The notes beneath the pieces were generated by a model, which worked only from the letters and a program-made list of their open reading frames with translations, was not told the origin of the DNA and ran no database searches. DNA of 64,000 bases from Candidatus Woesebacteria bacterium (GTDB lineage: Bacteria; Patescibacteriota; Microgenomatia; UBA8517). The DNA is taken from contig CP065002.1 in the NCBI GenBank assembly GCA_016700095.1, forward strand, positions 368,463-432,462. The letters are read 5' to 3'. Made by a program: the position numbers and the translations under genes. This document shows positions 1-62,766 of the stretch, in pieces. The stretch's first letter is position 1, and every line of letters starts with the position of its first letter.

Positions 1-2678
1 TAAATCAATACCTGTTGTTATCCCTCCTGCTTCACTTACAAAGGAGAGACCAGTTGCTACTGCCGTATCCGTATCTGAATTATCAAGGACAAGTAGAGCT
101 TCGGTTGCCCCACTACTTGCTGCATTATCAATTACCAATCCGTTTTGAGTACCACTTGAGCTGGCATTGGTTAAAGTAAGGGTAGTGGAGTTGGCATTTG
201 CTGTTCCACTAAGAGCCTGGTTTACTGCGAGTAAACTATCCGAATCAAGAGTAATTGTCAGGTCGTCGGTTCCAGCCGGTGTAAACCCTACATTACCTGT
301 AAAGGTAAAATCATAGTCCTGGTTAACAGCAACATCATCTGCATTAACGGTAATGCCATTACCTGCTCCAACGGTAAAGGTGGTATCACCATCTGCACCG
401 ACAAGGACATTATCTGCTCCACCTGTAAGGCCACTTCCTGCAACTGCGTCACCTAGTAGCCTTACTGTAAAGTCAAGGTTTTCATCACCATCATCACCGT
501 TAGTTAGATTGGTTAGTATATTGCCATCACTACTGGTGAACCTTAAGATGTTGGCATCCACAACAGAGTAGGTATCAGTATCATCATCGGCTATCGTCCA
601 GGAAGAGAAAGCACTTACACTGGTTGTCCATCCGCAGTTGGTTTCAGAAACATCGCAGACCAAATCATCTCCCCAGTACAGATCTCCCGATGCACTTCCT
701 GCTGAAGCTGCATTGAAGCTAAAGACATTGTCAGTATCTGCATCATCATTAAGGCCTAAGGTGGTGCCATCAACAGACAAATTGCCTGTGATATTAACAT
801 CACCCACATTGGCATTATCTGTAATGGTCATTAGATCATTACCCGAGGTATCTTCAAAGGTTAGAGTACCTGTTGTACTTTCAAACATCCTTACTCCATC
901 AAAGAGTAAAAAGTTTGCATCAAGGTCAAGTGCTGTAACAATATCAGTATCACTTAAATCAATACCTGTTGTTATCCCTCCTGCTTCACTTACAAAGGAG
1001 AGACCAGTTGCTACTGCCGTATCCGTATCTGAATTATCAAGGACAAGTAGAGCTTCGGTTGCCCCACTACTTGCTGCATTATCAATTACCAATCCGTTTT
1101 GAGTACCACTTGAGCTGGCATTGGTTAAAGTAAGGGTAGTGGAGTTGGCATTTGCTGTTCCACTAAGAGCCTGGTTTACTGCGAGTAAACTATCCGAATC
1201 AAGAGTAATTGTCAGGTCGTCGGTTCCAGCCGGTGTAAACCCTACATTACCTGTAAAGGTAAAATCATAGTCCTGGTTAACAGCAACATCATCTGCATTA
1301 ACGGTAATGCCATTACCTGCTCCAACGGTAAAGGTGGTATCACCATCTGCACCGACAAGGACATTATCTGCTCCACCTGTAAGGCCACTTCCTGCAACTG
1401 CGTCACCTAGTAGCCTTACTGTAAAGTCAAGGTTTTCATCACCATCATCACCGTTAGTTAGATTGGTTAGTATATTGCCATCACTACTGGTGAACCTTAA
1501 GATGTTGGCATCCACAACAGAGTAGGTATCAGTATCATCATCGGCTATCGTCCAGGAAGAGAAAGCACTTACACTGGTTGTCCATCCGCAGTTGGTTTCA
1601 GAAACATCGCAGACCAAATCATCTCCCCAGTACAGATCTCCCGATGCACTTCCTGCTGAAGCTGCATTGAAGCTAAAGACATTGTCAGTATCTGCATCAT
1701 CATTAAGGCCTAAGGTGGTGCCATCAACAGACAAATTGCCTGTGATATTAACATCACCCACATTGGCATTATCTGTAATGGTCATTAGATCATTACCCGA
1801 GGTATCTTCAAAGGTTAGAGTACCTGTTGTACTTTCAAACATCCTTACTCCATCAAAGAGTAAAAAGTTTGCATCAAGGTCAAGTGCTGTAACAATATCA
1901 GTATCACTTAAATCAATACCTGTTGTTATCCCTCCTGCTTCACTTACAAAGGAGAGACCAGTTGCTACTGCCGTATCCGTATCTGAATTATCAAGGACAA
2001 GTAGAGCTTCGGTTGCCCCACTACTTGCTGCATTATCAATTACCAATCCGTTTTGAGTACCACTTGAGCTGGCATTGGTTAAAGTAAGGGTAGTGGAGTT
2101 GGCATTTGCTGTTCCACTAAGAGCCTGGTTTACTGCGAGTAAACTATCCGAATCAAGAGTAATTGTCAGGTCGTCGGTTCCAGCCGGTGTAAACCCTACA
2201 TTACCTGTAAAGGTAAAATCATAGTCCTGGTTAACAGCAACATCATCTGCATTAACGGTAATGCCATTACCTGCTCCAACGGTAAAGGTGGTATCACCAT
2301 CTGCACCGACAAGGACATTATCTGCTCCACCTGTAAGGCCACTTCCTGCAACTGCGTCACCTAGTAGCCTTACTGTAAAGTCAAGGTTTTCATCACCATC
2401 ATCACCGTTAGTTAGATTGGTTAGTATATTGCCATCACTACTGGTGAACCTTAAGATGTTGGCATCCACAACAGAGTAGGTATCAGTATCATCATCGGCT
2501 ATCGTCCAGGAAGAGAAAGCACTTACACTGGTTGTCCATCCGCAGTTGGTTTCAGAAACATCGCAGACCAAATCATCTCCCCAGTACAGATCTCCCGATG
2601 CACTTCCTGCTGAAGCTGCATTGAAGCTAAAGACATTGTCAGTATCTGCATCACTGTTTAGGCCGAGAGTGTTTCCGT
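1..2678. repeat. Tandem 954-bp (318-aa) coding repeat, about 2.8 near-identical copies (1-954, 955-1908, 1909 to about 2678); first copy may extend left of the window
   Basis: Identical shadow ORFs at 353/1307/2261 and 638/1592/2546 give a period of 954. Exact sequence identity was seen at 1.., 955.. and 1909..; divergence begins near 2650-2680. Confidence 0.9.
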
Positions 2679-5600
2679 CAATAGCAACATTACCCGAGAA
2701 GGTGGTGAGGGCAACATTTACATCAAGATCGTTATCGCCAAAGTCCAGTGAGGGATCGGTGGCACCTGAGGTATTAAATGTCCATGTAAAATCTGAGCCT
2801 GCTCCAAATGTAGAGCCGGCGATTTCTGTAGTATCCAAATTAAGAGTAATTGTGTCTGTTGTATCACTAACATCAGTATTGATACCGTTTGTACCACCTT
2901 GGATTATAAGGGTTTCTCCAGAACCAATCGACCTTGTATCACTATCGTCACCATCAATGTTCCAACCGGTATAACCGCCTGAGCCGGCAGACACATCGAT
3001 CCACGAAAGAACCCCGTTACTATTTGTAGAAAGAACTTGTTGATTTCCACCGTCCGCTGTGGGTAATGTATAAATTACATTACCAGCTAATACATCGGGT
3101 GCCTTGAAACCCGTGTAGTTATCTCCGTTTGCTTCCAATTCTTGAAACCTTACTTCACCGGTATTTCCCGCAGACGCTCCAAAGGGATTTAGATTGAGGG
3201 CTGAAGCCGAAACGTCTATAAACAAGGGCGCTTCGCCATCTGATCCGCCGATTGCCAAATCATAAGCAGTTTCTGTTAAGTAAGTTACGTCAGGAGTGGG
3301 GGTGGTGTTCACCGACCATTTTGATGAACCGGATGAAGCTGTCCATCCGCAGTTGGTTTCAGAAACATCGCAGACCAAATCATCTCCCCAGTACAGATCT
3401 CCCGATGCACTTCCTGCTGAAGCTGCATTGAAGCTAAAGACATTGTCAGTATCTGCATCATCATTAAGGCCTAAGGTGGTGCCATCAACAGACAAATTGC
3501 CTGTGATATTAACATCACCCACATTGGCATTATCTGTAATGGTCATTAGATCATTACCTGAGGTATCTTCAAAGGTTAGAGTACCTGTTGTACTTTCAAA
3601 CATCCTTACTCCATCAAAGAGTAAAAAGTTTGCATCAAGGTCAAGTGCTGTAACAATATCAGTATCACTTAAATCAATACCTGTTGTTATCCCTCCTGCT
3701 TCACTTACAAAGGAGAGACCAGTTGCTACTGCCGTATCCGTATCTGAATTATCAAGGACAAGTAGAGCTTCGGTTGCCCCACTACTTGCTGCATTATCAA
3801 TTACCAATCCGTTTTGAGTACCACTTGAGCTGGCATTGGTTAAAGTAAGGGTAGTGGAGTTGGCATTTGCTGTTCCACTAAGAGCCTGGTTTACTGCGAG
3901 TAAACTATCCGAATCAAGAGTAATTGTCAGGTCGTCGGTTCCAGCCGGTGTAAACCCTACATTACCTGTAAAGGTAAAATCATAGTCCTGGTTAACAGCA
4001 ACATCATCTGCATTAACGGTAATGCCATTACCTGCTCCAACGGTAAAGGTGGTATCACCATCTGCACCGACAAGGACATTATCTGCTCCACCTGTAAGGC
4101 CACTTCCTGCAACTGCGTCACCTAGTAGCCTTACTGTAAAGTCAAGGTTTTCATCACCATCATCACCGTTAGTTAGATTGGTTAGTATATTGCCATCACT
4201 ACTGGTGAACCTTAAGATGTTGGCATCCACAACAGAGTAGGTATCAGTATCATCATCGGCTATCGTCCAGGAAGAGAAAGCACTTACACTGGTTGTCCAT
4301 CCGCAGTTGGTTTCAGAAACATCGCAGACCAAATCATCTCCCCAGTACAGATCTCCCGATGCACTTCCTGCTGAAGCTGCGTTAAAGCCAAAGACATTGT
4401 CAGTATCTGCATCACTGTTTAGGCCGAGAGTGTTTCCGTATGCTTCGAAAGTTCCATCTACCTGCATATTGCCTGCGGAAGTAAGACTAAGTACTTCAGT
4501 TGTCCCGTTAGTGAATGTTAAATCATTATCTGTAGCAACTGATGTAAGTGTCCATGTATCAGCTATATCGTCGCCTTCATCGGCATCGAGAATAAATGTT
4601 GCATCTTCCGCCTCATTACCCTTTATATCAAACAACGCTTCCGGATTAGAATTATTAATTCCGACATTACCATCAGCATCAGCAAATATAGTGTAATCAG
4701 TAGTATCAGGATCTCTTCTAATTGCAAAAATACCTCCGAAGTCCTCACCGTTGTAATCTATGAGAAAACTACCTTTTCCATGGAATGTATCGTCTGTGGG
4801 TTCGCTGACAAATTGCGCCAATTTAGCACCCGTGGAATCATGAAACTCAATACCTAAATAATTTGCTCCTGTTGATGCAGTTGTACTTATTATGATATTA
4901 CTTGTATCACTGTCAACTACATGTAAGTCGCCACTTGGTGTTCTCGTTCCAATGCCTACATTTCCACCGGGATTAAAAGTAAGATCAACACTTCCATTTG
5001 TAGTTAAATCGATGGCTGTTGCTGAATCCTCGTCGAAATCAAAGGTCAACGTATTTGTACCATCTGCAAGTGACACTTCTGAATTAATTGAATTTGATAT
5101 TGTTTCATCGTTTTGCAAGGTAATATTTCCACCTTGGATATCAATCGCTCCCGTAAAATTAAAATTGTTTGTGGTAGCTAATATTGTATTGTCACCAAAT
5201 CCGAGTGATGTGTCGACACCGCCTGAAGCATTATATGTCCAGGTTATAGCTGATCCGCTTCCGAAAGTTGTGGTTCCAATCTCCGTTGTATCAAGGTTTA
5301 TCGTCACTGTGTCAACAGTACTATCAACAGTATCTATTCCATTCGTTCCTCCGATGATACTTAAAGTGTTGCTGTCTGCTATTTCCTGGCCACCACCAGA
5401 ATCACCGGCAACCGTAAACGAAGAGAAAGCACTTACACTGGTTGTCCATCCGCAGTTGGTTTCAGAAACATCGCAGACCAAATCATCTCCCCAGTACAGA
5501 TCTCCCGATGCACTTCCTGCTGAAGCTGCATTGAAGCCAAAGACATTGTCAGTATCTGCATCATCATTAAGGCCTAAGGTGGTGCCATCAACAGACAAAT

Positions 5601-8600
5601 TGCCTGTGATATTAACATCACCCACATTGGCATTATCTGTAATGGTCATTAGATCATTACCCGAGGTATCTTCAAAGGTTAGAGTACCTGTTGTACTTTC
5701 AAACATCCTTACTCCATCAAAGAGTAAAAAGTTTGCATCAAGGTCAAGTGCTGTAACAATATCAGTATCACTTAAATCAATACCTGTTGTTATCCCTCCT
5801 GCTTCACTTACAAAGGAGAGACCAGTTGCTACTGCCGTATCCGTATCTGAATTATCAAGGACAAGTAGAGCTTCGGTTGCCCCACTACTTGCTGCATTAT
5901 CAATTACCAATCCGTTTTGAGTACCACTTGAGCTGGCATTGGTTAAAGTAAGGGTAGTGGAGTTGGCATTTGCTGTTCCACTAAGAGCCTGGTTTACTGC
6001 GAGTAAACTATCCGAATCAAGAGTAATTGTCAGGTCATCGGTTCCAGCCGGTGTAAACCCTACATTACCTGTAAAGGTAAAATCATAGTCCTGGTTAACA
6101 GCAACATCATCTGCATTAACGGTAATGCCATTACCTGCTCCAACGGTAAAGGTGGTATCACCATCTGCACCGACAAGGACATTATCTGCTCCACCTGTAA
6201 GGCCACTTCCTGCAACTGCGTCACCTAGTAGCCTTACTGTAAAGTCAAGGTTTTCATCACCATCATCACCGTTAGTTAGATTGGTTAGTATATTGCCATC
6301 ACTACTGGTGAACCTTAAGATGTTGGCATCCACAACAGAGTAGGTATCAGTATCATCATCGGCTATCGTCCAGGAAGAGAAAGCACTTACACTGGTTGTC
6401 CATCCGCAGTTGGTTTCAGAAACATCGCAGACCAAATCATCTCCCCAGTACAGATCTCCCGATGCACTTCCTGCTGAAGCTGCATTGAAGCCAAAGACAT
6501 TGTCAGTATCTGCATCACTGTTTAGGCCGAGGGTGGTTCCGTATACAGAAAGGGTTGAAGTAAAGACTCCCGAACCGTTTACGGTGAATAGATTGTCAGC
6601 AAATGAGAGAAGATCTAAATCTGAACTTAATCCAATATTTGTACCATCAACCGTTAAAGAATCAATATTTAACTGAGTTCCTGTTATAACCCCTGCTGTT
6701 GTGATAGTCGCATTTGTTCCACCGACAGTAAAAGAAGCGTTTGTAACGTCGAGGCCGTTTTCGGCATCTACGTTACCTGAAAAACTAACTTGACCGGTTG
6801 AATTAAAATCAAGCGCGCCTGTACCAAGCGTTGATAGTGTCAAAGCACCAAGATCAATACTTGTAGCACTATCAAGAGAAAGAGTATCCGACAGTTCAGT
6901 GAAATTTAAGATATCATCGGCGATTGTTACGTTGGCTTCGTTGGCAGGGGAAGCTGTGACTGAGAAATCGGATGAAAAATCTATAGTATCCACGTTTACA
7001 CCTACAGTGCTGTCATTGTTTTCTATATTGACGATTGCAAATGCTGCACCGGAATCAGTTGAACACTCCCATGAGTCGTTTGCCTCATTCCATTTTAGAA
7101 CTTCACCATTTGCACATCCTTGCAGTAATCCAATTCCTCCGGCAAATACTTCCAGTCCAGATCCATTACTTACAGTTGAAGAAAGTCCATTTGTGGCTGT
7201 AATAGTTTGTATGGTCAACGCATTCGCACTAAGCGTCAAACCATCACCGGTGAAATCTGAAATAGTTTCCGAGTTAATAGTGATATCTCCTGCGATTTCT
7301 AGATTTCCACTATTATCTACGTCAAACAAATTATTACCCAGACTGTCCTCAAAAACGACCAGATCGCTTGATTGGGTACTATTGCCTTGTACAAGTAATT
7401 GAATTTCGTTAGAATCGCCGTCGATCGCTAATTTTGACGATAGGGAAGAATTGCCACCAATAATTACTTCGTCTGTTGTATTGTTTAAATAAATGAAACC
7501 GGTTTGTTGTGACCATTTTGAACTTCCGGCGCCAATCGCGGCATCCAAGTCATCAAGCACATCTTGGACATTTGTGCCTGAAGAATTAGCGAATTCAGCA
7601 AAAACTCCCACAAGTGAAGCGCCTGACATGTCTTCGTCTGATCCGGTATCGTTCAAACCGATTAAACCAATAGTTACATCTTGTCCTGAAGCAATTGTAA
7701 CTCCACCGACATCGGTGGTTATGCTGTCTGCAGTCAGGCTGTCTTGGATATCCACATTGCCTCCGGCGTTTATTGTTAACGTGGCTCCGTCGGCGGTAAT
7801 CATATCTCCATTTACCGCAAGATTACCGGTGATCGTCAAATCTCCGGCACTCTCATCAAAAAACAAAGCGGCGGTCGAATCGAGACCACCTATTGCAAAG
7901 TCATCTGTGAGACTTGTAAGGTAAGTAACTGTACCTGCGTCAGTAAAAAGGGAACTGGTTCCGGTTTTATCCTCTGCCCATGTAAATGTGCCTGTTGCGG
8001 AATTGTATGTTAGCACCTGATTGTCGGATGGGGTATTGGTTACCGACAGATGTCTGACAGTTATAGCTTCATCAGATATTTCGGATGATTCGACAGTATC
8101 ACCTATAACAGTTTCCAGAACATTATTAATTACTTGTAAGCCTGTACCTGTAAAATCGGCGATTGTATCTTGAGATAGCGTAAGTGAAGCTCCAATTTCT
8201 AACTCCCCAGAAACAAAAAAATCGCCGTTGGCGAGGTCTATTGTTGGAATTCCTGTACCTATAGTGACACCTCCACCTCCTGGATCGATAATTATGTCAC
8301 TAACCGATGTAATTGTATTGCCGGATAGATTCAATACTCCACCGATATCTAAGTTGCCATCAACACTGGCATCATTTTTTAAATTTGTTTTTACATAAAC
8401 ATTGAAAGACTGATCTGCGATAGATTGACTAGTCAAAGCTAGTACTTTGCTTTCTTTGTTTATGCTTTGTTTATCCATGCTTGCAATACGCACGGGGAAA
8501 ACCCTTGTCATTGTTTCGTTTATGTTTTTCTTTACCGCATTTGGAGTGATATGGCTTATTATTTTTATAGAGCTTAATGTAAGAAGTAATACTCCGGCTA

Positions 8601-32675: not shown

Positions 32676-32704
32676 AAGATTAGCGGCGGGGCGGGATGCA
32701 GGGG

Positions 32705-33474
32705 TGCAGGGTCCAACCCTGCAGACACGTTATTAATCGATTGACAACTCTTTCGACAAAGCAGGTGGTTCAAGATCGTTCATGAAGTTTTGATACGTAT
32801 TGTTTGATTTAATTTCAGTGAGTTTGGATTTCGAGAATATAGATAACACAATCTCTGGTTTAATCCAACTTCTTTTGCTCATTCCCAGATAATCAGAACA
32901 TGAAGAGTGCCAATTCGAAATGTCGGTAACAATTCCACGAGGATTTAAATGAATATATTTGGTTAGGTGGAGCAAGTATATGTCATTTTCGACAAGTGAA
33001 GCTCGATAATTACTTTGAAATAAAGTACCAACACGACTATATTTTTTATTAAAATACATTGAGTATCTTGTGGTTATAGAATGCATGAATTTTTCCATCG
33101 AATTTCTTAATTCTTGTCTAATTAATAAATGAAAGTGATTGGGCATCAAACAATATGAGATTAAATCAATCTCTTTTTCAAAGTTTTGAGGAAGTCGTTT
33201 GGGCACATCAAAACCATCAATATGTTGATGATATGGGGGAGTTAATGCTTCGACAAGGAGACAAGTGAACTTTTTGTAATCACTCGGGTCTAAAAATATA
33301 CTTCTTTTTTCTACACCACGGTTGTATACATGGTAATAGCTGTGGTCAGCATAAACTTTGACTACATTTCTTCGCGGCATCTCTTTGGTACTTTCATGTT
33401 AAATCAATATGTTAAGTAGTGCAACATATTACGATGGGGTGCAGGGTCCAACCCTGGCAGGGTTGGACCCTGCA
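32705..33474 (-). mobile_element. REPtron-like unit: Y1 HUH transposase gene flanked by REP hairpins (single REP 3' of the gene, inverted REP doublet 5' of it)
   Basis: tgcagggtccaaccctgca at 32705..32723 (hairpin: stem gcagggt/accctgc, loop cca). Doublet tgcagggtccaaccctg + gcagggttggaccctgca at 33440..33474. Transposase CDS 32733..33380 lies in between. Confidence 0.7.
32733..33380 (-). CDS. Y1 HUH transposase, IS200/IS605 TnpA / REP-associated tyrosine transposase (RAYT)-like
   Basis: MPRRNVVKVYADHSYYHVYNRGVEKRSIFLDPSDYKKF...LISYCLMPNHFHLLIRQ (HuH motif)...FMHSITTRYSMYFNKKYSRVGTLFQSNYRASLVENDIYLLHLTKYIHLNP matches the Y1 transposase family pattern; 215 aa. Confidence 0.8.
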   Translation of the reverse strand: MPRRNVVKVYADHSYYHVYNRGVEKRSIFLDPSDYKKFTCLLVEALTPPYHQHIDGFDVPKRLPQNFEKEIDLISYCLMPNHFHLLIRQELRNSMEKFMHSITTRYSMYFNKKYSRVGTLFQSNYRASLVENDIYLLHLTKYIHLNPRGIVTDISNWHSSCSDYLGMSKRSWIKPEIVLSIFSKSKLTEIKSNNTYQNFMNDLEPPALSKELSID

Positions 33475-33715
33475 GACTGCAGACAAAATACATACTGTGA
33501 GGCGGCAAGAGTACTTGAGCCGGGAGGACTTCTTATCCTGAACCGTATCGGAACAGAAACTACACACGAAGCACTTGCTGCAATGAATGGACTAAAACTA
33601 GTTTGACAAGATACCAGACCAGATACGATGTCTCGTGATGCAGTATTTATCAAACCCCTCGAAACTTTTCCGCATGAGGTATAAATACTGTTAGTACTAT
33701 AGACTTTTGTAAAAT

Positions 33716-33988
33716 ATGTTAAATGTGTTAGAATATGATTCCCTCCTTAGAATAAAGTGCTTAACTAAAAACAATATGCCTGAAAGATTGACGGAAGAGG
33801 AGTTAGTGTCCTTAAGAGATAAAGCCACCAAAGCTGCGTGTGATAGTTGGCAAACTGCTGTGGTTGGTGGCGAAATTGTAGTTGGGTATGCGGTCCCGAC
33901 TACTAGGCAGTATTCATTGGAGAAAGAACGACAATATGGATTAAGAAGGAAAGTCCCGGAACCCGAACCTCCAATTTACACAGAGTAA
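33716..33988 (+). CDS. Hypothetical small protein
   Basis: 90 aa (likely start at the internal MPERLTEEEL); no family recognised. Confidence 0.3.
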   Translation: MLNVLEYDSLLRIKCLTKNNMPERLTEEELVSLRDKATKAACDSWQTAVVGGEIVVGYAVPTTRQYSLEKERQYGLRRKVPEPEPPIYTE

Positions 33989-34634
33989 GTGATTGAAAGC
34001 GTTTAAAATATAAAATAATTTAATATCATATATAATTCCTAATGACACTTATTGAGCCAATTCCTTTAGCCAATAAAACACGGCTAGCAACAAGCAAACA
34101 AAACACAAGATCCCTCGACTGTCGCTTGAGATGACAATCTAGTAATGTTTGAGACGAAAAACCAAAAACACTCGAGATGATATAGGTTGTTATATTGACC
34201 GTTCCTTTTGTCATTTCGACCAGCTTCATTTTGTTATTCTGAGGTTTCCTTTTGTCATTTCGGCCACAAATGGAGAAACTTAATTACATAACTTCCATTA
34301 ATTGCAAAAACATTGCTTACCTTCGTTTTACCTGTGGGTTTACTTGTTCTTCCTTAGGTGGATGGGAATTGTGATTTACCTGTTTATATCTTTCTATTGG
34401 AATAATCCGACTTCCTTCGTGTCCGCCATCTTGTCGTTTAATAGGATTTTTGCCACGTTTATCACAATACAATGGTTGTCTTGCTAAATCTAAATCTGGT
34501 GTCATATAACCCATAATATCAATTTATGGGAAATAATCAATTCTTGATTGGCTTGTAAAGGTGTAATAAAATCAATTTTTGGTAGCTTATAATATATTTA
34601 ATATTAGTGAGTGAAACGGAGCATTGGTTTGCAT

Positions 34635-34668
34635 GCAGGGTCCAACCCTGCCAGGGTTGGACCCTGCA
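34635..34668. repeat. REP-A inverted doublet (tgcagggtccaaccctg c cagggttggaccctgca)
   Basis: Same 17-nt hairpin unit as at 32705 and 33440, in head-to-head orientation; lies between small ORFs in an intergenic region. Confidence 0.85.
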
Positions 34669-34767
34669 CCCGCACCCCCAGCTTGTATATTTTGTACACT
34701 ATGCGTAATTTGCCTAATTCGTCGTTTGTTTGTAAAATACTGTTTATAAGTGTGAGGAGGTGATTAT

Positions 34768-39208: not shown

Positions 39209-39258
39209 TTCCAACCCCGGGGGTTGGAACAGCCTCAAAACAACCCCGGGGGTTGGAA
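39209..39258. repeat. REP-B element: palindrome ttccaaccccgggggttggaa + 11-nt spacer + caaccccgggggttggaa
   Basis: Near-perfect palindromic 21-mer (stem ttccaacccc/ggggttggaa) repeated after cagcctcaaaa. An almost identical 50-nt element is at 63662..63711. Its end lies 8 nt from the 3' end of tRNA-Pro. Confidence 0.85.
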
Positions 39259-39266
39259 ATTTTGTG

Positions 39267-39338
39267 TCGGGGACCCGGGAATCGAACCCGGAGTCTCTCG
39301 ATCCCGAACCGAGCGCTCTACCATTAAGCCAGTCCCCG
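39267..39338 (-). tRNA. tRNA-Pro (anticodon CGG)
   Basis: Manual fold of the reverse complement: acceptor CGGGGAC/GTCCCCG (C1:G72, A73, typical of bacterial tRNA-Pro); D stem GCTT/GAGC; anticodon stem CTCGG/TCGAG with loop TTCGGGA; T arm CCGGG-TTCGATT-CCCGG; 72 nt; CCA not encoded. Confidence 0.85.
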
Positions 39339-40859: not shown

Positions 40860-40875
40860 CCAGGGCTGGACCCTG
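40860..40875. repeat. Degenerate single REP-A copy (ccagggctggaccctg, 1 mismatch)
   Basis: Matches cagggttggaccctg except t->c; marks the left edge of the higher-GC island. Confidence 0.6.
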
Positions 40876-41143
40876 TAATTCTGCTATACCTGTAATCTTG
40901 AAAAACGCTAGAGATTTAATATTTGTTTATTTAAACTTCCCGAAAACCGTGGATGATTAGACCACGGATGAAGGGAAGCAGGAAACAAACTTTTCGAAGA
41001 AAATCGAGGGTTCTCAATTTGTTTATTATCGACTAGAAGGTCTAGATTACTTAGGCCAAGTGATGTCGCTAGTGATAGATATTAAAGCAGTAATAAATCT
41101 TGTGTAGTTACTAGCCACAAACGGGACTTGATTTTCGAGTTTC

Positions 41144-44396: not shown

Positions 44397-44456
44397 TGAT
44401 TGCAGGGTTGGACCCTGCAGTTGTGGAATTATTGATTGCAGGGTTGGACCCTGCAG
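44397..44456. repeat. REP-A direct doublet: tgattgcagggttggaccctgcag x2 separated by 12 nt
   Basis: Copies at 44397..44420 and 44433..44456, both in ttgg-loop orientation; 16 nt from the 3' end of tRNA-Arg. Confidence 0.85.
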
Positions 44457-44471
44457 CTGTGCTGCTAATAG

Positions 44472-44543
44472 TGCCCTCGGCAGGAATCGAACCTGCAGCT
44501 AGCCCTTAGGAGGGGCTTGTTTTATCCATTAAACTACGAGGGC
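44472..44543 (-). tRNA. tRNA-Arg (anticodon CCU)
   Basis: Manual fold of the reverse complement GCCCTCGTAGTTTAATGGATAAAACAAGCCCCTCCTAAGGGCTAGCTGCAGGTTCGATTCCTGCCGAGGGCA. Acceptor 7 bp; D stem GTTT/AAAC; anticodon stem AGCCC/GGGCT with loop CTCCTAA; T arm GCAGG-TTCGATT-CCTGC; 72 nt. Confidence 0.85.
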
Positions 44544-61742: not shown

Positions 61743-62615
61743 ATGAAAGTTAAACTGATTACAACTTTGCAATCAATCGAGATGCAGAGACTAAAAGACG
61801 AAACGTGTGCGATGGGGCACGAATGTGACCTTGTTGATTTGAGCAAATTTACTTTTTCGATTCGAGACACTAAGTTGTCGATTGACAATCTGGGTAATCC
61901 TAATCCCGATGTGGTTGTCGTTAAAGGAGTGACAGTCAACAAAGCTCCGATTGTTGCTTTAATTCACGACTACAGAAAACGAGGAATAAAAGTATTCGAC
62001 AACAACTATTGTGAGCATCAATACACAATAAATAAGGTAACCGATCTAATTAAATTATCTTTGAATAATGTTCCTATACCCGATACTTTCCATTGTCACG
62101 ACTTTGATGAGTTTTACCGAGCATGCGAAATAGTGGGTTATCCGGCGATTGTTAAATTAGTTGGAGCCGGAAAGGGCGCCGGTGTTTTTAAGGCCGATAA
62201 TAAGGAAAGGTTGGCGGAAATCATTTCAAACGCACAAAACGACATGCTTAAATCAGCCTCAAGATTTATCGTCCAGCAATATATTCCTTACGAACACGAT
62301 TTGCGAGTCCTTATTATTGGCGAAAAATTATTTGTGATGAAGCGAATTCCGGGCGAAGGTGAATTTCGTGCTAATTTTTCACTCGGTGGATCGGTTGAAA
62401 CTTTCGAACTTGACGACGAGGGAAAGGAACTGGCGAAGCGAGGTTTGGCTGCGGTTGATATGTCTGTCGCCGGAGTAGATTTACTTATAACCAAAGACAA
62501 CAAGCGTTACGTCTTGGAGGTTAACCATACCCCCGGATTTGTCGGAATGGAAAAGGCAACGGGTGAAAACATTGCACGAATTTACATGGAGCATGCGATT
62601 GGTAATGCATATTAA
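61743..62615 (+). CDS. RimK-like ATP-grasp ligase, paralog 1
   Basis: GYPAIVKLVGAGKGAGVFKA...DLRVLIIGEKLFVMKRIPGEGEFRANFSLGGSVE...VDLLITKDNKRYVLEVNHTPGF. Confidence 0.75.
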   Translation: MKVKLITTLQSIEMQRLKDETCAMGHECDLVDLSKFTFSIRDTKLSIDNLGNPNPDVVVVKGVTVNKAPIVALIHDYRKRGIKVFDNNYCEHQYTINKVTDLIKLSLNNVPIPDTFHCHDFDEFYRACEIVGYPAIVKLVGAGKGAGVFKADNKERLAEIISNAQNDMLKSASRFIVQQYIPYEHDLRVLIIGEKLFVMKRIPGEGEFRANFSLGGSVETFELDDEGKELAKRGLAAVDMSVAGVDLLITKDNKRYVLEVNHTPGFVGMEKATGENIARIYMEHAIGNAY

Positions 62616-62620
62616 GTATT

Positions 62621-62726
62621 TGGTAGTTGGTAGATGGTAGATAGTAGATGGTAGTAGATAGTAGATGGTAGATGGTAGATGGTAGATGGTAGATGGTAGA
62701 TAGTAGATGGTAGATGGTAGGTAGGT
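62621..62726. repeat. Imperfect heptanucleotide microsatellite (TGGTAGA/TAGTAGA)n, about 15 units
   Basis: tggtagttggtagatggtagatagtagatggtagtagatagtagatggtagatggtagatggtagatggtagatagtagatggtagatggtaggtagg. It begins 6 nt after the stop of 61743..62615 and ends 40 nt before the ATG of 62767. Confidence 0.9.
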
Positions 62727-62766
62727 TCAAGTATTAAGTAATTAGTCCTTAGTCATTTGCAAATTT

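Follow-up and report, generated by a model that had tools for sequence, protein, structure and literature searches.

The window analysed here, a 64-kb stretch of DNA from the 1.27-Mb genome of a Candidatus Woesebacteria bacterium in the Microgenomates group within the candidate phyla radiation (CPR), contains a gene for a 215-aa Y1-type HUH protein with short, perfect hairpins on both sides of it, and the locus raises the question of whether the gene and the repeats belong together. We consider it likely that they do, as a REPtron-like unit in which a class-2 Y1 HUH enzyme, a relative of the repetitive extragenic palindrome (REP)-associated tyrosine transposases (RAYTs), lies among hairpins that it most likely recognises.

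That a repeat family exists and is placed around the gene is evident from the window itself. Repeats were sought with the pattern GCAGGGTNNNACCCTGC, allowing up to two mismatches, and dinucleotide-preserving shuffles (n = 100) served as the null. The 17-mer GCAGGGT-NNN-ACCCTGC, with CCA or TGG as the loop between its arms, has seven matches (at 32706, 33441, 33457, 34635, 34651, 44402 and 44438) where the shuffles lead one to expect 0.04, and none of the 100 shuffles reaches seven. The majority of units extend to a 19-nt palindrome, TGCAGGGT-NNN-ACCCTGCA, with a stem of 8 bp, and the family amounts to eight units at five loci, one unit being degenerate (Table 1). The pattern search and the coordinates of the open reading frames (ORFs) bear out the initial annotation, made from the letters alone, which had described a 17-nt hairpin unit with one copy after the stop codon of the gene and an inverted doublet 60 nt upstream of it; the palindrome also recurs away from the gene, where the copies that had been placed from 34635, 40860 and 44397 now have the refined limits given in the table. 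Each of the two head-to-head doublets folds as DNA into a single 16-bp hairpin of -20.4 kcal/mol (z about -6), the energy of a lone unit being -8.5 kcal/mol, and the two are exact reverse complements over 38 nt (33437-33474 and 34634-34671, 100% complementary). A 21-nt exact direct repeat, GGGGTGCAGGGTCCAACCCTG, occurs at 32701 and 33436, one copy on each side of the gene, such that the GGGGT flank and first unit of the upstream doublet repeat 32701-32721 exactly. When the eight units are aligned in a common orientation their flanks read ggggt, cagtct, ttgcat, caact and the like. All copies in the window lie outside ORFs of at least 100 aa, except for a 105-aa antisense open frame which the palindrome itself creates. 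Density is about one locus per 13 kb in the window, and about one per 20-30 kb outside the neighbourhood of the gene, the corresponding off-gene value for related loci being about one per 19 kb; extrapolation from the off-gene density would give tens of hairpin loci per genome, a figure that is only an estimate. An adapter or assembly artefact is ruled out because the locus is identical in the NCBI genome and in an independent Logan assembly, and because in other genomes the hairpin continues the reading frame of real genes.

The protein is deposited as QQS39338.1 under the label 'transposase [Candidatus Woesebacteria bacterium]', on a contig of 1,274,238 bp. Its sole Pfam match is to Y1_Tnp ('IS200-like'; E 4.7e-13, residues 68-144), and Pfam finds neither a helix-turn-helix nor a DnaA_C-like domain in its tail. 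An AlphaFold2 model (pLDDT 81, pTM 0.81) compared by Foldseek with the PDB gave as its best match 4ER8_A, the E. coli TnpA-REP/RAYT bound to REP (E 2.2e-7, TM 0.71 on target), with the TnpA structures of IS608, ISDra2 and IS200 ranking lower (E 2e-4 to 1e-3). Profile alignment equates H81 and H83 with H59 and H61 of E. coli RayT, Y141 with Y115 and N145 with N119, which in that enzyme are respectively the two histidines of the HUH motif, the catalytic tyrosine and one of the metal ligands (Messing et al., PMC3479197). The HUH motif had thus been placed correctly at NHFHLL. The tyrosine had been sought in QSNYRAS, and here the earlier proposal fails: Y124 aligns to a phenylalanine of RayT and is therefore not the nucleophile, and Y141, in KYIHLNP, is the predicted catalytic residue. 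Two family alignments, one of 24 members and one of 54 that includes the window protein, share the invariant residues N80-H81-F-H83, F120-Q121-x-x-Y124, Y141-I-H143-x-N145-P146 and S158-S159, and the window protein has every residue that is invariant across the larger alignment; fold and catalytic residues are conserved. The tyrosine motif, Y-I-H-L-N-P, is of class 2 (Y-x-x-x-N-P), as opposed to the Y-x-x-x-Q of class 1 (PMC6006769, Table 1). A search of about 5.8 billion database proteins, made non-redundant by clustering at 90% identity, gave at least 7,897 homologues at E <= 0.001 (7,897 of the 8,000 candidates scored); the closest are 50-55% identical and about 227 aa long, with no swarm of near-identical copies, and where a source is named it is Woesebacteria, Gottesmanbacteria, Beckwithbacteria or another of the Microgenomates. 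A check for carriage by phages found no relatives of the family in a collection of viral contigs.

Comparison across homologues ties the gene to the hairpin. An exact scan for the 17-mer, taking one genome per species, returned among the matches listed mostly singletons in high-GC genomes, as chance predicts, and repeated matches in two genomes: the Candidatus Beckwithbacteria metagenome-assembled genome (MAG) PCSQ01, with at least 10 matches on at least nine contigs, and the unclassified MAG CAXBYZ01, with matches on at least three contigs. In both there are genes for homologues that share 42-44% identity with the window protein. The window-type hairpin flanks homologues, only about 42% identical, in at least four other genomes or contigs: in Beckwithbacteria (L015) it brackets a 215-aa homologue of 42% identity (hairpins 4390-4412 and 5078-5100), in L105 it lies 5' of the start, 3' of the stop and within the gene, and in L188 and L198 the core GGGTTGGACCC is found on both sides of the gene, in four copies and two respectively, the lower stem in L198 showing compensatory changes. 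Scanning metagenomes with the family alignment added 80 loci. Most of the other metagenomic loci have different hairpins built to a common plan, in which a variable lower stem leads to an apex, RGGN-NNN-NCCY, with a 3-nt loop. With hairpins defined by this apex, a stem of at least 6 bp and a distance of at most 80 nt from the gene, they were found upstream at 35 of 76 loci, downstream at 36 of 74, and, where both flanks could be assessed, on either side at 45 of 70 and on both sides at 22 of 70. Against a background of 0.0046 hairpins per equal-sized stretch elsewhere in these loci, gene flanks are enriched about 100-fold, and a stricter definition of the hairpin gives the same picture. Hairpins flanking one gene match each other and their sequence differs from genome to genome; even two paralogues in one MAG, L004 and L105, which are 62% identical and have the lower stem CCTGCAGG in common, differ at the apex (GGGA-GAG-TCCC versus GGGT-TGG-ACCC). 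Gene and hairpin are coupled and covary across the whole family, and cognate pairing of this sort is the hallmark of REPtrons. We also note a metagenomic contig (L164) on which two genes of the family (3934-4700 and 5998-6699) lie about 2 kb apart; before the upstream one comes a 31-nt palindrome, the halves of which match the hairpin 3' of the downstream one.

Of the other explanations, the one that survives best, though we regard it as improbable, is that 32701-33474 is an autonomous IS200-type insertion sequence of 774 bp, composed of tnpA and left- and right-end hairpins, whose remnants or PATE-like miniatures are the solo hairpins. The 21-nt exact repeat that brackets the gene, with the hairpin in the same orientation, and a unit size near that of IS200 fit such an element, but an independent short-read contig spans the gene, the downstream hairpin and the unique neighbouring sequence, breaking only at the doublet, and solo hairpins outnumber genes. 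The 64 kb hold no second copy of the 215-aa gene, the only other Y1 gene there being highly divergent and associated with a different palindrome, and the closest database relatives are at most 55% identical. Similarly, the only Pfam match is to an 'IS200-like' family, but the NCBIfam IS200 model (NF033573) scores 14.7 bits against a cut-off of 55, the tyrosine motif is not of the Y-x-x-x-Q type, the fold is nearer to RAYT than to the TnpA proteins of IS608, ISDra2 or IS200, and no TnpB domain was found among the neighbouring ORFs. The initial annotation had named the locus a REPtron with a RAYT-type protein, which the match to 4ER8, the failure of the IS200 model, the lack of TnpB and the enrichment at gene flanks all support; in the choice between RAYT and IS200 groupings, RAYT provides both the best fold and the best model, but the score of that model lies below its NCBIfam cut-off.

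It is more improbable still that the hairpins are host structural signals unrelated to the Y1 protein, such as transcript 3'-end or stability elements, tRNA 3' processing signals or terminators, and that their adjacency to the gene is coincidental. Secondary roles of this kind are known for REPs in other bacteria (PMC3733652), and in the window copies are indeed found between convergent genes and immediately 3' of its two tRNA genes. Terminator function is rejected, however, since a terminator scan flags no unit and none is followed by a T-tract, and across all loci a hairpin accompanies just 3 of 19 tRNAs. Host signals would leave unexplained the enrichment beside family genes and the covariation of hairpin and gene, and the perfect Watson-Crick pairing of the stems would favour a constraint acting on DNA over one acting on RNA. 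As for DNA-uptake signals, restriction or methylation sites or other recognition sequences unrelated to transposition, the unit does hold CTGCAG twice and GGWCC once, and the uptake sequences of other bacteria also occur as inverted pairs and in genes at permissive sites, but the low density of loci, the way in which hairpins sit closely on either side of the Y1 gene and within it, and the paralogue-specific apex variants are not what such sequences predict, and we think this explanation very improbable.

By structure, the known system closest to the REPtron-like unit proposed here is the REPtron of E. coli (RayT or TnpA-REP, TnpAY1 subclass 2.2, with REP/BIME repeats; PDB 4ER8), which has the Y1 HUH fold in common with it. 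In both, the protein has the HUH motif, a tyrosine on helix alpha-D and the Y-x-x-x-N-P motif; cognate hairpins flank the gene, head-to-head doublets resemble REPINs, and each paralogue has its own repeat type. The window protein is only 13% identical to E. coli RayT in the structural alignment, exceeds it by 50 aa, has an additional tail at its C-terminus and is encoded in a small CPR genome; unlike E. coli REPs, the hairpins of the window family are short perfect palindromes (stem of 7-12 bp, 3-nt loop) without bulges and without a 5' GTAG, and E. coli TnpA-REP requires a 5' GT[AG]G tetranucleotide for binding and cleavage (PMC3479197, PMC6006769).

At the level of motifs, the level at which this assignment is made, the window protein would belong to subclass 2.1 (Bertels group 1, largely the TIRYTs). 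That subclass is characterised by NH[YF]H, FQ and Y[IV]HLNP, with a conserved SS further on, and by a median length of 238 aa (Quentin et al. 2018, PMC6006769); the window motifs NHFH, FQ, YIHLNP and SS are identical to one of the two sets listed, and the proteins studied here are of similar length (215-230 aa). Subclass 2.1 has been reported to lack REP-like sequences near the gene (PMC6006769), and group 1 RAYTs to show merely a slight excess of flanking 16-mers (Bertels et al., PMC5581495). In contrast, the hairpin association found here is strong and family-wide, and the hairpins at the flanks recur elsewhere. There is partial precedent for a hairpin-linked subclass 2.1, because some of the repeats flanking TIRYTs are self-complementary, form moderately abundant families and are arranged as dimers (Di Nocera et al. 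2013, PMC3733652). Many TIRYT repeats carry the motif GGGGWSAS, which the window flank GGGGTGCA fits at only six of eight positions. TnpAY1 subclass 2.4, of cyanobacteria and Bacteroidetes, resembles the relatives of the window gene in having REPs in frame within tnpA-REP and other genes. It differs in motif (WQ and YIxNNP versus FQ and YIHLNP) and in the placement of the in-gene hairpins, which in the present family lie before the HUH motif and after the tyrosine motif and not between the two; the window gene itself has no internal hairpin. With IS200 and the TnpA proteins of IS200/IS605 the unit shares superfamily, chemistry and hairpins near both ends of about 0.7 kb; the class-2 tyrosine, the failed IS200 model, the want of a nearby TnpB, the absence of near-identical copies from our searches and the dispersed solo hairpins set it apart. 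Rickettsia palindromic elements (RPEs) are likewise palindromic repeats tolerated in frame in protein-coding genes. They measure 100-150 bp and are not known to have a dedicated transposase, unlike the units described here, which are 17-25 nt long and tied to a Y1 gene.

Several observations weigh against a REPtron-like unit. The 5' GT[AG]G foot of canonical REPs is absent from all eight window units and from the Beckwithbacteria copies, and copy number is low, at five loci in the window. About one third of family members for which both flanks are available have no detectable hairpin, and the orientation of the loop relative to the gene varies between genomes. The top NCBIfam model for the protein is REP_Tyr_transpos (NF047646), but the score of 43.1 bits falls short of its threshold of 80. 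When the PDB was searched by sequence, with the protein alone and with a profile of 24 sequences, there was no more than a weak match in the HUH region to ISDra2 TnpA, so that structure prediction and Foldseek were needed. Because the GT[AG]G foot is missing and the fit to GGGGWSAS is incomplete, we classify the locus as REPtron-like, belonging to a divergent clade of class-2 Y1 proteins, and not as a canonical RAYT/REP pair.

How such hairpins persist is suggested by their behaviour in coding sequences. A strictly extragenic position of the copies, which the initial annotation had wished to see checked, holds for the window and fails for the family: the hairpin of PCSQ01 and CAXBYZ01 is a longer one, CCTGCAGGGT-NNN-ACCCTGCAGG, and lies mostly in frame within real genes, namely those for MiaA, SecA, glutamate dehydrogenase, an S-adenosylmethionine (SAM) methyltransferase (in both genomes just before motif I), TruB and the Y1 protein itself. 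Loci with in-gene hairpins are L042, L058, L043, L004, L001, L105, L146, L159, L166, L152 and L178. The long element has stop codons in no frame, and real genes use only the frames LQGPTLQ, PAGSNPAG, LQGWTLQ and PAGLDPAG. Within the Y1 gene there are two sites, A (11 loci), which precedes the HUH motif at about aa 50-62, and B (12 loci), just after YIHxNP. The window gene has a hairpin at neither, and the family consensus at site A, LQGxSFxG, resembles a decayed hairpin.

For truB, we considered whether LQGPTLQ in the Beckwithbacteria protein might be a recent insertion with an 'empty site' in orthologues, and rejected this because orthologues down to 47% identity keep the same length there. 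The site is a beta-turn before CGSGTY, which reads LQGxxL[KQ] in Microgenomates orthologues and Y-x-W-P-x-L in distant CPR sequences, and the hairpins that occupy it differ by genome without change of length. In L069 it is AACCTGCAGGGTCCAACCCTGCAGGTT, a perfect 12-bp hairpin; in the 81%-identical orthologue of L203 it is a different perfect hairpin of 10 bp, CCTTCAAGGAGACTCCTTGAAGG, with a related copy 800 nt away; those in L205 and L206 are one mismatch short of a perfect palindrome, and that of L204 is decayed. Since the truB hairpin changes as a whole to fit the repeat type of its own genome, these sequences suggest replacement or homogenisation in place at an orthologous coding site. A separate observation concerns ribosomal protein L1 of Beckwithbacteria (L069, 2725-3495, minus strand), which has an N-terminal extension with QGPTLK and the C-terminus LDLQGLTL; both peptides resemble decayed hairpin-derived peptides.

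By analogy with E. coli TnpA-REP and the TnpA proteins of IS608 and ISDra2, from which binding, cleavage and mobilisation by the 215-aa protein, its action on single-stranded DNA and the homogenisation of hairpins are all inferred, the protein would bind the hairpin in single-stranded DNA and probably read the conserved apex, GGGT-NNN-ACCC. A divalent metal ion would be held by H81, H83 and N145, and Y141 would cut beside the hairpin to form a 5'-phosphotyrosine link. Rejoining to another 3'-OH could then move, copy or exchange hairpin units, which over time may have scattered singles, head-to-head (REPIN-like) doublets and direct doublets through the genome and kept them alike. We raise as a tentative possibility, more doubtful than the REPtron-like unit itself, that a large, CPR-wide Y1 clade resembling subclass 2.1 maintains minimal perfect hairpins at fixed, ancient sites (two within its own gene, others in truB and the SAM methyltransferase gene), which are rewritten in place to the current hairpin of the genome, the enzyme acting mainly by exchange or conversion of hairpins already in place (concerted evolution) and not by insertion of new copies. 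If this were true, it would be a hitherto undescribed way for REPs to propagate.

Descriptions of REP/RAYT systems come mostly from Proteobacteria and cyanobacteria, and Y1 genes outside insertion sequences are reported to be enriched in large genomes (PMC6006769). The present findings extend such systems to ultra-small bacteria, with two Y1 genes, each accompanied by its own palindrome, within 64 kb of a 1.27-Mb CPR genome, and link hairpin repeats to a protein subclass published as REP-less. In a full-text search of a limited literature collection, no paper that connects CPR bacteria with RAYTs or REPs was found. Tiny, perfectly paired hairpins with a conserved apex offer a simple substrate with which to study how these enzymes select and process DNA, and the in-frame hairpins that covary at orthologous coding sites make it possible to test by comparison how REPs persist and remain uniform. 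On a practical level, the repeats account for breaks between contigs and for spuriously called ORFs in assemblies of CPR genomes.

Table 1. Coordinates of the Y1 genes, hairpin repeats and tRNA genes of the window, and of truB orthologues in related loci (positions in the window unless a locus is named)
Feature	Position	Strand	Remarks
Single unit, TGCAGGGT-CCA-ACCCTGCA	32705..32723	.	10 nt beyond Y1 stop codon; between convergent genes; preceded by GGGGT
Y1 HUH single-stranded DNA nuclease/transposase-like gene (RAYT/TIRYT type), 215 aa	32733..33380	-	ORF, Pfam, fold and residue mapping; NCBI QQS39338.1
Head-to-head doublet, REPIN-like	33440..33474	.	35-nt perfect palindrome; 60 nt 5' of Y1 start codon
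Second head-to-head doublet	34634..34668	.	35-nt perfect palindrome
Distal doublet of second palindrome family	39209..39258	.	7 nt 3' of tRNA-Pro(CGG)
tRNA-Pro(CGG)	39266-39338	-	
Degenerate solo unit, CCAGGGCTGGACCCTGT	40860..40876	.	long intergenic region
Direct doublet	44401..44455	.	units 44401-44419 and 44437-44455; 15 nt 3' of tRNA-Arg(CCT)
tRNA-Arg(CCT)	44471-44543	-	
Doublet of second palindrome, ATTCCAACCCCGGGGGTTGGAAT then CAACCCCGGGGGTTGGAA	63661..63711	.	54 nt 5' of second Y1 gene
Second, divergent Y1_Tnp-family gene, N-terminal 78 codons	63765..64000	+	cut by window end; phmmer relatives
truB orthologue	L069 2117-2914		
truB orthologue	L203 10001-10627		
truB orthologue	L205 3468-4145		
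truB orthologue	L206 7097-7756		
truB orthologue	L204 10001-10654		

The second Y1 gene, whose phmmer relatives are proteins of 219-230 aa that match Pfam Y1_Tnp, forms with its own palindrome, TTCCAACCCCGGGGGTTGGAA, another REPtron-like unit; elsewhere in the window that palindrome occurs only as the doublet beside tRNA-Pro(CGG). About 0.9 kb 5' of the doublet that precedes this gene, 62602-62734 is a run of 7-nt tandem repeats (GGTAGAT and variants). An Rfam scan of the window matched the two tRNAs only, and each of them has a direct doublet 7-15 nt beyond its 3' end, one from each palindrome family. Placement of REP doublets 3' of tRNA genes is rejected as a general rule, because so few of the tRNAs across all loci have such a hairpin, two of the three that do being those of the window.

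The two head-to-head doublets of the first family bracket a 1.16-kb stretch (33437-34671) that contains only small ORFs (90, 65 and 67 aa) without Pfam matches and a pair of 36-nt direct repeats (34187 and 34231). The stretch may be a REP-bounded segment that has been rearranged or is decaying. An ORF tail that follows the upstream doublet, EPGGLLIL, was considered as a methyltransferase remnant, an identification that is unproven, the only Pfam match being Anamorsin_N (E 0.083) and BLASTP against the L004 methyltransferase, which bears a hairpin, giving E 1.1. At the left end of the window, positions 1-8000 hold tandem repeats with a 954-nt period in five to seven copies, many of them 100% identical over 300 nt, and are probably a giant repetitive protein gene on the minus strand. 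This region has a higher GC content (0.42-0.45) and a negative GC skew, unlike the rest of the window, where from 8000 to 64000 a strong positive skew (0.1-0.2, plus strand) is sustained for more than 50 kb, the sign switching near 8 kb.

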